NCBI GenBank assembly: GCA_977030845.1
Contig: OZ365110.1
Coordinates: forward strand, 38,564,001-38,628,000
Direction of reading: 5' to 3'
Length of the DNA: 64,000 bases
Source: Fimbriosthenelais zetlandica
Lineage: Eukaryota
Shown: in pieces, positions 491 to 45,002 of the stretch
How the letters are laid out: every line of letters starts with the position of its first letter
How positions within the stretch are numbered: position 1 is the stretch's first letter
The notes under the pieces: model-generated
Database searches by the model: none
The model's input: the letters and a program-made list of their open reading frames with translations, nothing else
What the model was told of the DNA's origin: nothing
Program-made: the position numbers and the translations under genes

Positions 491-723
491 TGTTATAGAT
501 CTAAATTCTATATATATATTATGTACAACCCTGTACATTACACACCCTGTAGCGTCGTCCAATCCTAGCTTAGGATTGGGGGACGCTACCCTAATGAGCA
601 TATAAATAAAGCGAGCACCTCGGTGACTCGCCAGTCTAAATCTGACCCTGTAACTGAACGGACTTACTTATCATTACCTCTCAAACTACCTACACATTCA
701 TACGACAATAGACATTCATCTCA
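491..723 (+). repeat. 5' LTR (233 bp)
   Basis: Starts TGTTATAG and ends CATCTCA; 491-638 is identical to 4110-4257; contains TATAAATAAA (overlapping TATA and AATAAA) at 601-610. Confidence 0.95.
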
Positions 724-724
724 C

Positions 725-739
725 TGGTGGAGAAGCCCG
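725..739 (+). other. Primer-binding site, probably complementary to a tRNA-Ala 3' end
   Basis: TGGTGGAGAAGCCCG starts 1 nt after the LTR-terminal CA. TGGTGGAG is the complement of ...CTCCACCA, typical of tRNA-Ala 3' ends; the isoacceptor assignment is from memory. Confidence 0.75.
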
Positions 740-1638
740 AAATTTCGATACCTCTCAACATCACAATATTACTTTGTGGATTTTGCAAAAATTGGAATTT
801 TTGGACCGATTCAGGGGTTAGACTCCTTCTCCTACCGCCACAGTTCCAGCCAACACCCACGGAACTACATCAAGACCATGAGGATTTCAAAATGATAAAT
901 TGGAGAGAGGACTGTTATAGGTGTGGTTTCACATGGACAGCCACACATCAGTGTCCTGCCTATAACAGATCCTGCTTCAAATGTGGCAAAACAGGCCACT
1001 TTGCAAGACGCTGCCTTACACGGACTATTCAAAATGATAAGGCGCGCCATAGAGATGTGACAAACCTCCCTTTTACTCTAAAGACAAACGGACTCCATAA
1101 AACAACACGGGAGGAACCTAGCCATGGAAGTTACGTACATGTATATCGAAAACCATGGAAAAGAAGAAAGAGAAACTGGCAACGATGCCAAAGGACTAAA
1201 AGACATAACACCAGAAACAGCAATGCCACATGTGAGTGCACCCACTTGAGGGGCAAAGTGGCGGAATTAAGCTCACAAGTACAAAACTTGACCAAGGAGC
1301 TTGAAACATATAAGGCAGCAAGTGTCAATCAGACATCAAAGGTTGACATTGGTGTTAATACCGAAGACTGTACAGGACCATCAAGAGTAGACATTGCAGT
1401 GAGTACAGAGAACCCCGAGAAATGTGAGGAATCCACACAAACTGTGCATAGGACCTTGTTTGAAACTGCACAATTACAATATATGATTAATAAAATTATA
1501 GGCACATACTTGGGACGACAACAGGAGCTTAATGACGTTCATTATAAACGTATGGAAAACCAACTAAGCTTCATGCTACGTTGGATATTAGATCATCCAC
1601 GTGGTACGCAAGAAGAACAAATAGAAAACTATAGGTAG
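727..1638 (+). CDS. Retroelement Gag-derived nucleocapsid-like protein (two Cys/His knuckles, basic stretch, coiled coil); first in-frame ATG at 892 gives 248 aa
   Basis: Uninterrupted 303-codon frame. CYRCG-x6-HQCPA (913-954) is followed by the canonical CX2CX4HX4C knuckle CFKCGKTGHFARRC (973-1014), a pairing typical of Gypsy-type Gag C-termini. Lies between PBS and 3' LTR. Confidence 0.85.
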   Translation: MEKPEISIPLNITILLCGFCKNWNFWTDSGVRLLLLPPQFQPTPTELHQDHEDFKMINWREDCYRCGFTWTATHQCPAYNRSCFKCGKTGHFARRCLTRTIQNDKARHRDVTNLPFTLKTNGLHKTTREEPSHGSYVHVYRKPWKRRKRNWQRCQRTKRHNTRNSNATCECTHLRGKVAELSSQVQNLTKELETYKAASVNQTSKVDIGVNTEDCTGPSRVDIAVSTENPEKCEESTQTVHRTLFETAQLQYMINKIIGTYLGRQQELNDVHYKRMENQLSFMLRWILDHPRGTQEEQIENYR

Positions 1639-1694
1639 GACTTGCATGTATTGTTCAAACCAGGAAATATATATAATTATCTATTAGCATCTTA

Positions 1695-1724
1695 AAATTC
1701 CTCATTGACACTGGGGCAACATAA
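1695..1724 (+). pseudogene. Relic of a retroviral-type aspartic protease active site
   Basis: AAA TTC CTC ATT GAC ACT GGG GCA ACA TAA = KFLIDTGAT*, about 60 bp after the ORF stop, where protease follows Gag in Gypsy elements; in-frame stops on both sides. Confidence 0.65.
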
Positions 1725-4089
1725 TTTTGTCTATATCATTTGTTTTCTCAAATAGTAAAACAAGCATGTAATTTTTTTGTGTGTGCGTATTAATATATTT
1801 TTTTTCTGGATTACTTCTCGACTTTTAAGTGATTTCATCAAAATTAATCCATGACTTTGGCTTAATCCCAATTCACTTTCTTTAGTTCAAAGACATACCT
1901 CCAAATTCAAAGGGACTCAACCATCCCCCTTGACATAAACAGTAAACCTTAATTCTTAAACAGTCGCATACTTTCCCATCATTAAGGAACCCATCCAAAT
2001 TCTCATCCCCAATAATCTGTATATGTTCAAACACTGTAATGTCATCACAGAGGTTAATGACCAACGCTTATCAGCAACTATGTTTATGGCAGGAGCGGAT
2101 TGGTTTGTGTGCACCCATATGTCAGTCGCCGTGACCTCTGTAATGAGCCAGGTGGTTTGAATATCAAGCCACCCTTCCCCATGACGCTTCGTCGGAGTGC
2201 GTCCTTGCTGTCGTCACTGTCATAAAGCTTTGTAGCTTCGTGCCGACTTGCCTTGACCAGTGACTAATAGACACCCCCAAATTCCCTTTGATCTGTTGTC
2301 ACTTGGTCATTTATACGGCTAACGCCATAGGAGCACGTGGAATCAGCTGCACCCGCGTGAAAAAACAGCTCAGTTGAGCCAAGCCCAAAGCCAGCTGAGT
2401 TGCTCCTTCATGTAGCACAGCTACGCTCTTGTGCTTAGGCAGTGACTAACCATAAATTGGTGGCAGCTTGGTAACGTGCATCATGGATAGGCTGAGGCAC
2501 TAATTAGTGTCTCTGATTTCTGGCTCATTTACAAGTCTTACTGGCTATTGAGGTGTCTCATTGATTTAATTTGTGACTGCTATATTACATGTGTCAATGC
2601 TGACTAGGTCAATTGGTTTAATAATTTCTGAACTAGTGTTATTCAAATATTCAATTTCATAAAAGCACACAGTATTTTTTTTTTCGGTTTACCTCTATAT
2701 TATATTATTCAAATTACTGCAAATTGCTTAATACAAATCCCCCTTACCTGTTACCCAGTGTCATACAAAATTCATAAGGAAACATTACATTTAATGATGT
2801 ATACTTTGATAATATTTTACCTTTGATATTTGAACTTTGGACAGATGCACTTTCTGGTATATCAAATAATTTATTTTTGAATCTTTTGCCTGGTTTGTTC
2901 AATGGTTATTATGCAATGTCTGTATGCACTAGCAGTACCAGAAACCCAAGTTACTCACGTGGCCCTTATCCAACTCAACTCGTGGCCATTATCTCCCCAT
3001 CAGGAAGTGCGCCACCCCAGCCGCGTGTATATGTATGCCATATGGACTCATTAATGACACTTGGAGGGCAAATTGAATTTTAGAAACTTTAAACGCGCCC
3101 ATTTCAAACGCAGAAAATATTCTTCATTAACAACTTGAAGACACTGATCATTTAAGCAATTATGATTTAGGGTAAAATAACCTGTATTGTGTGTGTGTTT
3201 TTTTTTGTTTTTTTTTAATGTTTGAAATTAATGGTATTAATTATGTGTGTTTTTTTACTTTGTGGTCGGGACAGAGTGTATGTCCAGTCAATAAGTTTCA
3301 ATGCTCAACCAACTTAACAGTTAACATGTTTAAAAGTTCTATATAAGGAGTGAATACATTTTCTCGGTTATCAAGTACATGTATGGCGATAGAACTGCAT
3401 CCTTATCAATTCGATTTAATTAGTTTTCTTATAATAAGGGTCCAAATATATATGTACTGTGCCCCGCCTTGTGAAAGCGTCACGTCGACACTTGAGCGCG
3501 TGTACACTAAACCGTCACTTCGTTCCACCCCATTATCACATAACAGATAACATAGCACCCTAAACTAACCCCACTCTGAGTTTATTATCAAGTAGCCGCT
3601 GCCAGATATAGAAGCCAGATTATTTGTCCAAATTATAAGTTGATTGGCAGCCGCGCCCCTTTTATCACATCTCTCTCATCTTTTATTATTCTGTAATTAC
3701 TAAGTGTCTTGTGTTTGAATTTAGCTTAAATATTAAAATTGGTTCGCACCCCACCCCCCTACGGGGAGGGGAGGGATGATTCCCGTCATTATCATTGTTA
3801 CATTTTAGAGTATAATGACAATATGTTTTAACTTTGAATCTGAATGTCACCTCAAGCGATTGACTCCCCAATATTCGTTAAAACAGCTTTCATTAATTTA
3901 GGTAATTAACAATCTCCATCTCGTTCAGTTTTGTTGATTTATGTTAAACAACAATTTCAAACCTTATGTTTAATCAATATCTCTTGTAATCTTATCTATT
4001 GTAAACCTCACTAACTTCTCCCAGAATGAATTACTAAAAACTAGTTAGCTAGATGATGCCTCCTCAAACTCTTTGAGCAGGCATCATCT

Positions 4090-4106
4090 GGAAAGGGGGG
4101 AGGGAG
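4090..4106 (+). other. Polypurine tract
   Basis: GGAAAGGGGGGAGGGAG, ending 3 nt before the 3' LTR TG. Confidence 0.9.
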
Positions 4107-4109
4107 TGA

Positions 4110-4344
4110 TGTTATAGATCTAAATTCTATATATATATTATGTACAACCCTGTACATTACACACCCTGTAGCGTCGTCCAATCCTAGCTTAGGATTGGGG
4201 GACGCTACCCTAATGAGCATATAAATAAAGCGAGCACCTCGGTGACTCGCCAGTCTAGAACTGACCCTGAACTTATACAGACTTACGTTTACTTATCTCT
4301 CTAAAATACTCATAACATAATAACTACAATAGTCATTCATCTCA
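4110..4344 (+). repeat. 3' LTR (235 bp)
   Basis: Direct repeat of 491-723; ends ATTCATCTCA, followed by the TSD CCAC. Confidence 0.95.
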
Positions 4345-7292
4345 CCACCTTCAAATTATCAGGCTCGAGTGGTGGGAAAAGGTGAATATCAAATTGATCT
4401 GTCATTCTGAAAAACCACGAAAATAGAACGCCAATTAAATTAATAATCTTAGAAAAAACATCTTCCAGGACTTAATATACGAAGTGGCCTTCACATCTCC
4501 GGTCAGTATCTGTACCTCTCTATCTTATATATCAAAGTAATTTTGGTTCATTGACTTCATGTACTAGGTTATTACCAGTAAAAGTTTGGTTTAGGAAATA
4601 TTGAATTACATAATGAGATTCATAAATTTATGAATTAATTATGGGGTAATAAAATATGATTAAGGGATTCAAAATAAACGAAGTATTAAGTTATATGTCC
4701 CTTGTGTGGTAGTTAGTTCATTCAATCAATCAATTCAAAAAGAGGCAGGTCAGAAGTTATCATGGGGAAATGCAAAGGTTAATTTGTTATGGGCCCATGT
4801 GGAGAAGTCAACTGATTTATGTTCCCTCATGCCTCCACAGACAGCAAGAGAAAGTGAGGAGAGTGAGAGAGAGGATATTCTTCTTCATTTCTCCAGTCTT
4901 ATCAATGTAGAAATCTCTTGCTTCCACAAAATGGAATCAATACAGATATATTGCAAACATACACAGTGAGGGAGCACACTGCCTGCAGGATAAAGCCATC
5001 AAATGTAGATCTCGAGCACCCACCATCGTTAGAAATATAGTCTTTGACTAACATGAAAGGATCTGGGGTGGATGATTTGTGGGTGAAAACATGGCGGCGC
5101 CCATTGATCTGAGCGATAATTGCTTGCACAATGAGCCAATAATGTCCTAATCTGACGAGCTGTAAGAAATGGCCCCCGAAGTGGCGTGTGCTTCGTTACA
5201 AATCCCGATATCTGACATTACAGCGCTCAAACTGATACAAGGAGATAAAAAGGAGCTGCTTTTCCCATCAGGCACAGGGGCTGGTGGTAGGAGATCGGGT
5301 GGATCTTCTGATGTTCAGTTTGCCTTAGCACTGATACTCCCAGCCAACACTCGGCTGATCTCTGGACTGGTGTGGCATAAAAGGGTGTACCCCTCTCTTG
5401 GAATAGTGGTATTCGACTGCAATGGTTTCGATACAATAAGGACATCAGTCTCATGCATGCCTAATTATAAATTAGGCCTAGCTGTTCGAACTTGCATGCA
5501 TGCACATAATAGACAAGTCGACTAATTAAGCCTGGAACACACCATGCACATGCGTTCATCTGTAACGACAGATTCTGCTCTTTATGCAAATACAAGTGGG
5601 CATCTCCGATGTTGCTTTAAAAGGTAGTGCAGATATCTGTTTTCAAGCCTGCTGAAGAAGCCCAGATTTGGTCCATTCATCAGGCATCTGAAATACACGC
5701 ACACTGGTCAATTTGGGCATGCCTTCTAAATCCTATTGATTTTGGCCTGTTAATTGCATCCACATCCAAGTAATACCCTCATATTTCTTTCAGTTTCAAT
5801 ATTCTTCCAAAAGAAACCAAAGAATGTCCAAGGACATTTCGATGAGGGGACCATTACTGTAACACCACCAGTTCGATCCCTGCCTACCTTATCGCTACAG
5901 AAAGAAGCGATGGAGAATTCAATTAGATGATGGCACATTCCGGGCCCACCAACCTCCATTCATCATCATTCCACAAGGGGCCGCCTTACACGCACAATTA
6001 CACCGCCAACGAGTCTCCGCGTCCCTTGGCCAATTGCACTGCTCGGATCGTCTGCTGTTTGAGCGCGATGGATCAGTCTGCCGAACTAACATCCTTAAGC
6101 CTTATTTGTACAAGTGATAACAAAGATCACGTGGCCGTGGTTAGCCAGTACGAAATATGCTTGTGGGACGCGGTGGAAAGCGGAAAACGAGGTTGTATCT
6201 CGGTCCCGCGACAATGTATGAGACTGGGGTGTGTGGAGACGCCTAGCGGCACTCGTGGGGAATGGCAGATCAATTGGCCGTTGGTGGGAGCATCGTGTCG
6301 CCTGCTTTCAACGATAAACCGGTTATTTTTCAATCTCTCTCGAGCAAATTGAATGAAATGCACGCGCGACCTCCAGGAAAATTGGGTTTCTTCTTGGGCG
6401 CAGTAGTGTGGGTCAGGTTGTTACGATGAAGGCGGTAGAGGGCAGGTTTTTCTGCCTCGCATGAATGGGACCGTGCGCCTACACTTCCGGCGGCCATGAT
6501 TTGTCTTGATGAAGAGGGCTAGGATTGATATGTCAATGAGATAAATGGTGGAGCGTGGGGGTCTTCCTTCTTGATGCTGCATCAGTGGTATACCACCAGC
6601 CCCAGCGACGCTCTGTTAGCCCAATTGGATGAGGATCATTCTTCTAACGATGGACGAAAAACACACCAATTTATGGCGCCGCCTGCCTCTTGCCCGCCAC
6701 AATAGATGCAGCCTAATTGAACCTTGATAGGACGCCGCCCAGAGAAGGAGCACATTCCGCGACAAAGTCAATTGATTCGCGGCGACGCAGGCGAAATATT
6801 CGCCGACATTTGGCGGTGTGGGCTGATTGTTTCTAGCGCCATCAATCAGTTCATTCCTGACGGCCAGATCTCATTCTCAGCCTATCAGAGTAATTGACGC
6901 CGCCGGTTTGAGCCGAGCCAGGGGCTGGTCGAGAGGAGAAGATGGTAATATTATGGGATGGCAAGGATCATTTTGATCAGCGCCAGCTCGCGGCGATGAA
7001 GGAGACATTACTTGCAATTATCACCACACTGTGTCGACCTCGACAGACGACAATTTTCTCCCGGCATCGTCATCTCGTTATGTATCTCGCGAGGAACGAG
7101 ATCAAAGTGAGAGTCGAGCGTGGCTTGGACTCTGATGAGCCCCGAGCAGTGATATGGTGAGAAATGACGAGAACTTACGATATTGCCGTGATGAGGAGAT
7201 AGCAAGAGGAAGAGATGGTTCTTAACTAAATTGTATCCGTGAGAGGAAGGGAGAGGATTATAGGGAGAGGCAGAAAGGGAGTAAGAGAGATA

Positions 7293-44918: not shown

Positions 44919-45002
44919 GTCAGGATGGCCGAGCGGTCTAAGGCGCTGCGTTCAGGTCGCAGTCCACTTCTGTGGGCGTGGGTTCGAATCCCACTTCTGA
45001 CA
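44919..45002 (+). tRNA. tRNA-Leu(CAG): tRNA-Leu (anticodon CAG), intronless, apparently intact
   Basis: GTCAGGATGGCCGAGCGGTCTAAGGCGCTGCGTTCAGGTCGCAG...GGGTTCGAATCCCACTTCTGACA. Acceptor stem GTCAGGA/TTCTGAC pairs; anticodon loop TTCAGGT with CAG at 44953-44955; long variable arm; A and B boxes; TTTT terminator at 45007-45010. Confidence 0.97.

Follow-up and report, generated by a model that had tools for sequence, protein, structure and literature searches.

How can a single retrotransposon insertion carry two unlike long terminal repeats (LTRs)? This question is raised by an element at positions 491–4344 of a 64,000-nucleotide stretch of Fimbriosthenelais zetlandica DNA (contig OZ365110.1, 38,564,001–38,628,000, forward strand), the whole of which we call the window. 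The element reads on the forward strand, with a 5′ LTR of 233 bp (491–723) and a 3′ LTR of 235 bp (4110–4344), both of the form TG...CA, and it is bounded by a CCAC target-site duplication (TSD) at 487–490 and 4345–4348. In a comparison of the two LTRs no column differs at LTR positions 1–148, but 29 do so between 149 and 222, a distribution far from an even spread (Fisher p = 9e-15). Identity is 67% from position 149 to the end (59/88 columns) and 90.3% over the whole pair. A first, sequence-only reading had reported an abrupt divergence after 148 identical bp and an intact TSD, and both observations hold. Both flanks of the element are single-copy in the 447-Mb assembly, and no empty-site allele of the insertion was found there. 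Elsewhere in the window, a tRNA-Leu(CAG) gene lies at 44919–45002.

LTRs of the same family were collected with a 26-base pattern from a block shared by both LTRs, allowing one mismatch or none (96 sites), together with five from similarity searches. There were 103 LTR matches in all, 97 of them of sufficient length for alignment, and later searches added five older LTRs; similarity searches pointed to some 130 candidates, which means that this set holds too few of the old copies. Two young LTR lineages emerged, A (225 bp) and B (235 bp); 46 diagnostic columns tell them apart, and none of these lies between LTR positions 119 and 149. LTRs of lineage A flank a pol-less internal region resembling that of the window copy, while those of lineage B flank a second pol-less type and two copies of 11.9 kb (L096/L097 and L130/L131). 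L123, a resident non-autonomous A-lineage pair, has in both of its LTRs exactly the 5′ U5 of the window copy (639–723), which is a rare haplotype (3/97 LTRs). The 3′ LTR is B-lineage over its full length, and its U5 part (4258–4344) is identical to 11 B-lineage LTRs, including all four LTRs of the two 11.9-kb copies, which encode reverse transcriptase (RT). At all 29 differing columns the alleles are shared with other family members. These exact matches on both sides exclude decay as the source of the mismatch, as the sequence-only reading had argued from the intact features of the copy. Its predictions that each U5 type would form a subfamily of its own with matched LTR pairs, and that one type would sit on pol-encoding elements, are borne out by lineages A and B and by the 3′ U5, respectively.

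We recovered 35 LTR pairs. Three have an interrupted LTR and show 0–4 differing sites outside the gaps. Among the other 32, 19 show no difference, 11 show one to six, and two are discordant in blocks, namely the window copy and L109; one further older pair is concordant in type, giving 2/33 discordant pairs. Single-site differences in L099, L108, L114, L124 and L132 match family alleles as well and were left uncounted, since 39/233 sites carry such a transition allele and chance could account for them. With 30 of the 32 comparable pairs concordant, asymmetry is not a trait of the family, a possibility that had been named as one that would overturn the original interpretation. Four pairs of loci (L116/L118, L148/L157, L183/L184 and L115/L145) have near-identical flanks and are likely segmental duplicates or uncollapsed haplotypes.

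Assignment of the whole element to lineages shows a layout of U3b-R-U5A, an A internal region, and U3b-R-U5B, where b denotes the B-lineage type of U3. The U3 parts of both LTRs (491–609 in the 5′ LTR) are B-type and identical, and both carry the variant T at LTR position 48 (T48). On a b background T48 is found in the window copy and L090 only, and three more T48 LTRs fall in an older lineage, 82–87% identical; its presence in both U3s points to a single U3 template. The internal region (724–4068) is A-type throughout, a mosaic of A haplotypes with seven private variants. Sixteen full-length 5′ LTRs precede an A leader, and the window's is the only one with a B-type U3. The lineage of the 5′ U5 is thus that of the leader (A), and the 3′ U5 belongs to the other lineage (B). 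Neither putative source element, a T48 B-type copy or an A-type copy with the window's U5 and leader, was found in the assembly. On these sequence grounds the window element is a real hybrid between two resident lineages; it is non-autonomous, of Gypsy type, and belongs to the young members of the family.

The two switches fall in 610–638 (b to A) and in 4069–4121 (A to b), the latter interval including the polypurine tract (4090–4106) and the start of U3. The 5′ switch had been placed about 28 nt after AATAAA, near the expected R/U5 boundary. It does fall within 610–638, but it cannot be fixed at 638/639, because LTR position 149 is merely the first site after 119 at which A and B differ. Variants at LTR positions 132 and 164 failed to place the junction more finely, T164 accompanying both alleles at 132. 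The positions of TATAAA (601–606), AATAAA (605–610) and CAGT (632–635) in the 5′ LTR suggest a very short R inside this shared block, where the RNA start would also lie. TATAAA is lost in most A copies; a loss of the poly(A) signal in the A lineage was considered too and rejected, as A copies have AATAAA four bases upstream. Both junctions appear to fall on landmarks of reverse transcription, the position of R at the first of them being the one suggested by these motifs and by eight recombinant loci described below, and the extent of the A-type part matches what would be expected in an A RNA between its start and its polypurine tract. The sequence-only reading had overlooked the B-type U3 and the wholly A-type internal region; together they call for a further template switch beside the polypurine tract, in the same or an earlier cycle. 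The LTR also contains an inverted repeat in U3 (549–589 and 4168–4208; 18 pairs, z = -8), each pair of which is paired in 90–97 of the 97 LTRs and in which a compensatory T-A/C-G swap at 566/572 keeps the pairing across lineages. A small hairpin (611–630, z = -3.2) lies directly after AATAAA, inside the block common to both lineages.

The window copy is non-autonomous, as it lacks pol and has its LTR, primer-binding site (PBS) and polypurine tract in common with a pol-bearing family. Its PBS (725–733) can pair through nine bases with the 3′ terminus of tRNA-Ala, CCA included. The 'intact ORF' of the sequence-only reading exists as an open frame of 308 codons (712–1638; 248 codons when counted from Met 892) that contains a single CCHC zinc knuckle, in an element that has no pol. 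A tblastn search with this frame against the pol-bearing copies gave no match, so it is not their gag, and an Atlas search gave no convincing look-alike. It could be, speculatively, a captured nucleic-acid-binding gene that helps packaging. A long frame with a CCHC knuckle (892–1638) is retained in the A lineage as such, and it bears no relation to the gag found in the pol-bearing copies.

The two 11.9-kb B copies encode gag, a pol in the order protease-RT-RNase H-integrase, and an env-like frame of 841 codons. Their pol order is that of Ty3/Gypsy elements, their RT is closest to Ty3 RT among solved structures (E = 1e-69, next 2e-42), and TG...CA LTRs, a tRNA PBS, a polypurine tract and a TSD are all present. 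Pfam searches of the gag and of the 841-codon frame gave no match. By its features the latter scores 0.95 in the Atlas to clusters with PF12259 on 33% of their members, at a recognition value below threshold. In gag, PR-RT-RH-IN and a possible baculovirus F/Gypsy env-like frame the copies may resemble errantivirus-like Ty3/Gypsy elements, the env likeness coming from this feature search with its low recognition value. Among the 150 scored of 714 candidates, the two copies are the only places with more than 76% identity to their RT segment, so they are likely the enzyme source, and would supply both pol-less types in trans. An older, partly deleted relative lies on contig C25. A 12-kb A copy (L105/L106) was considered as an A-type helper and rejected, since it has no pol, just an inserted stretch; this copy (G000:C11:27622496-27634490) has identical LTRs and an insert of about 8 kb, with frames that by eye resemble those of a THAP-type DNA transposon. 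The same genome holds numerous further young Gypsy families whose pol frames are long and open, and these would suit the same typing of LTR pairs.

Recombination between A and B LTRs is not restricted to the window. Concordant U3b/U5A pairs surround a B body in L090 and L126, and solo LTRs have the structure U3b/U5A (L153) or U3a/U5B (L116 and L118, probably one duplicated locus). A further concordant pair, L128 (G000:C38:422916-426652), has LTRs that are U3b, then A for 149–170, then B, with the lineage change between 170 and 178. Counting these six, the 3′ LTR of L109 and the 5′ LTR of the window copy, all eight young loci with a lineage switch between U3 and U5 have it within LTR 119–149, and none has a switch in two comparably long U3 stretches, of 41 and 27 bases, that do not differ between the lineages (p about 0.003 for the clustering, taking five independent lineages and three long blocks). 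L093, L101, L112, L113, L121, L129, L135, L139–L141, L143/L144, L156 and, at two sites, the L137/L142/L147/L152 group, older LTRs in which the states at diagnostic sites are mixed, were taken as ancestral and left out of this count. The placement of the switches is indicative of RNAs of both lineages sharing particles, and carries the signature expected of co-packaging and first-strand transfer. The change of lineage inside the U5 of L128 suggests in addition that an intact partner U5 may at times be available. Switching beside the polypurine tract recurs as well, as seen in L146 (G000:C21:11149450-11150072), a miniature element of 623 bp with two identical A LTRs around 173 bp, in which a B leader is joined to an A 3′ end at a short shared word at that spot.

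The second discordant pair, L109 (G000:C14:2503561-2505803), has an intact TSD (GTGG). Its 5′ LTR is all A, its 3′ LTR combines a different U3a haplotype with U5B, and its body has a B leader, an A 3′ end and an internal deletion, with a lineage junction at the PBS. Since its U3s differ too, another route is needed for L109, and it does not replicate the route of the window copy, which is the one case of its type of discordance. The L109 structure would fit intermolecular second-strand transfer or conversion. Both discordant pairs are among the six A/B hybrids of the 33 pairs (p = 0.03), which favours an origin in the particle, yet hybrids may also be easier to convert, which weakens this p value. 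Three hybrids with U5 and leader from different lineages (L090, L126 and L146) are concordant, a point against the reading given below.

In the standard scheme of reverse transcription both U5s derive from the primed RNA, and hence the LTRs match (PMC3187697); for a second U5 to persist, the minus strand must copy it. Our reading is that the mismatched U5s of the window copy were probably fixed when two co-packaged RNAs served as templates in a single round of reverse transcription, with the A-type U5 retained in the 5′ LTR. The minus strand would be primed on a B-type RNA (U5B), jump through R and copy a single U3b template. It would then move onto A-type sequence beside the polypurine tract, unless this step took place not in the same particle but in a previous cycle, from which the template came, and, because the 5′ end of the A-type RNA would be unused for priming, it would continue across that RNA's PBS, U5 and R. 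Plus strong-stop DNA (U3b-R-U5B) would pair with the extended end by R and PBS around the mismatched U5. R pairing and PBS pairing need not be alternatives; the nine-base pairing of the PBS with tRNA-Ala may favour help from R-U5. Both ends would then have the same U3, and the 5′ LTR would hold U5A opposite U5B, a mismatch settled to U5A by repair or at the first replication. A product of such read-through has its 5′ U5 from the RNA that gives the leader and its 3′ U5 from the other RNA, and the window copy agrees with this, as it does in having one U3, with the rare T48, at both ends. It had also been suggested that one U5 could mark the helper. The 3′ U5 is indeed that of the RT-encoding copies, but pol-less B copies share the identical U5, so that the priming RNA could be either's.

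The genomic predictions of the two-RNA reading have thus held, but a gene conversion that followed insertion would leave the sequence looking no different. Such a conversion would start from a concordant hybrid with B LTRs and an A body, itself a recombinant of reverse transcription, whose 5′ U5 was overwritten from an A copy by a tract spanning the shared R block and reaching into the shared leader. An exact donor for the 5′ U5 exists in L123, which is identical to the window copy up to 793; there is homology on both sides of U5, and the many solo LTRs tell of active recombination after insertion. From 794 on the window's leader is closest to L137, as a tract from an L123-like donor would give, a weak point in that the linkage of U5 and leader is loose in the family. 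We nevertheless consider conversion rather unlikely, as it requires one more event in a copy so young that its U3s do not differ, the left end of the tract would have to coincide with the very block in which the other young recombinants all switch, and the other 30 comparable pairs show no conversion-like patch of A/B alleles.

The remaining explanations are far less probable. Plus strong-stop DNA (U3b-R-U5A) could have moved at the PBS to another nascent DNA (U3b-R-U5B with an A internal region), an intermolecular transfer of the kind proposed for HIV-1 by Cappy et al. (PMC5651808), and L109, with its whole-LTR discordance, intact TSD and junction at the PBS, is what such a transfer predicts. 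For the window copy it is improbable, since whole LTRs should then differ and its U3s are identical, and since the same U3b with the rare T48 would be needed in both RNAs. With about 100 near-identical LTRs in the genome, one U5 might instead have been overwritten by reads from other copies during assembly or polishing; this is a shade less probable still, given the intact TSD, the unique flanks, a contig of 57 Mb and the 19/32 pairs without any difference, and because polishing would impose the majority haplotype and not one found in 3/97 LTRs. A crossover between a solo LTR and a one-LTR circle was rejected on logic, as it would yield reciprocal bA/aB ends. Ordinary ageing of once-identical LTRs, or a fixed family asymmetry, has raw divergence in its favour and nothing beyond. 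Its probability is negligible in view of 0/148 against 29 U5 columns, of differences that are all shared alleles and of the concordance of the other pairs.

The read-through on two co-packaged RNAs that we favour has a close parallel in murine leukaemia virus vectors with modified PBSs, for which a 1998 J Virol study reportedly described a minus strand running through the partner's PBS and a second transfer mediated by R-U5. Priming on one RNA, extension via the partner PBS into R-U5 and an R-U5 second transfer would be shared with the window copy. Those vectors were engineered, PBS-modified and followed in cell culture, whereas ours is a natural germline insertion of Gypsy type with an unmodified PBS, U5s that are no more than about 65% alike, and an inferred route. 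Swapping of LTRs between autonomous and non-autonomous elements is said to have been described in soybean by Du et al. in 2010, a family-level exchange in a plant; there too, a non-autonomous partner trades LTR sequence with an autonomous one. For bursts of Onsen/COPIA78, Sanchez et al. (2017, PMC5668417) describe pairwise recombination of co-packaged family members with junctions at R by first-strand transfer. Two co-packaged members, mosaic LTRs with R junctions and internal switches match what we see in L090, L126, L153 and L116/L118. In the scheme set out in a review (PMC6894440), however, such first-strand transfer at R ends in two identical mosaic LTRs, whereas the LTRs of the window copy differ. 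The intermolecular transfer that Cappy et al. (2017) propose for recombinants of HIV-1 resembles our case in that a new integrant has unlike LTRs from two co-packaged RNAs, and differs from it in predicting discordance of the whole LTR and a junction at the PBS, which L109 fits and the window copy, with its identical U3s, does not. Mosaic LTRs from co-packaged relatives are therefore known; the literature searched, most subscription papers being outside its coverage, yielded no report of a natural, TSD-intact pair that differs in U5 only and has been traced with exact matches to a pair of resident lineages.

LTR dating assumes that both LTRs are identical at insertion. The window pair, about 10% apart though its U3s are identical, would be dated as old despite being young. 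If 2/33 pairs were typical of families with co-packaged subfamilies, age distributions would have a tail in which copies are falsely counted as old, and some of the mismatched pairs usually blamed on gene conversion may be born so. The window copy also connects one particular pol-bearing lineage with a lineage that lacks pol, and offers a natural test case for the second-strand route described in engineered retroviral vectors. More tentatively, and with somewhat less than even confidence, we suggest that LTR pairs may regularly be born unequal in this Gypsy family, through shared particles and two non-canonical second-strand routes, the read-through of the window copy and the intermolecular transfer at the nine-base PBS of L109. 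If this is true, the ends of both parents would be frozen into single insertions in about 2/33 pairs and 2/6 hybrids, and such copies would record the primer RNA and the body donor, and seed mosaic LTR subfamilies.
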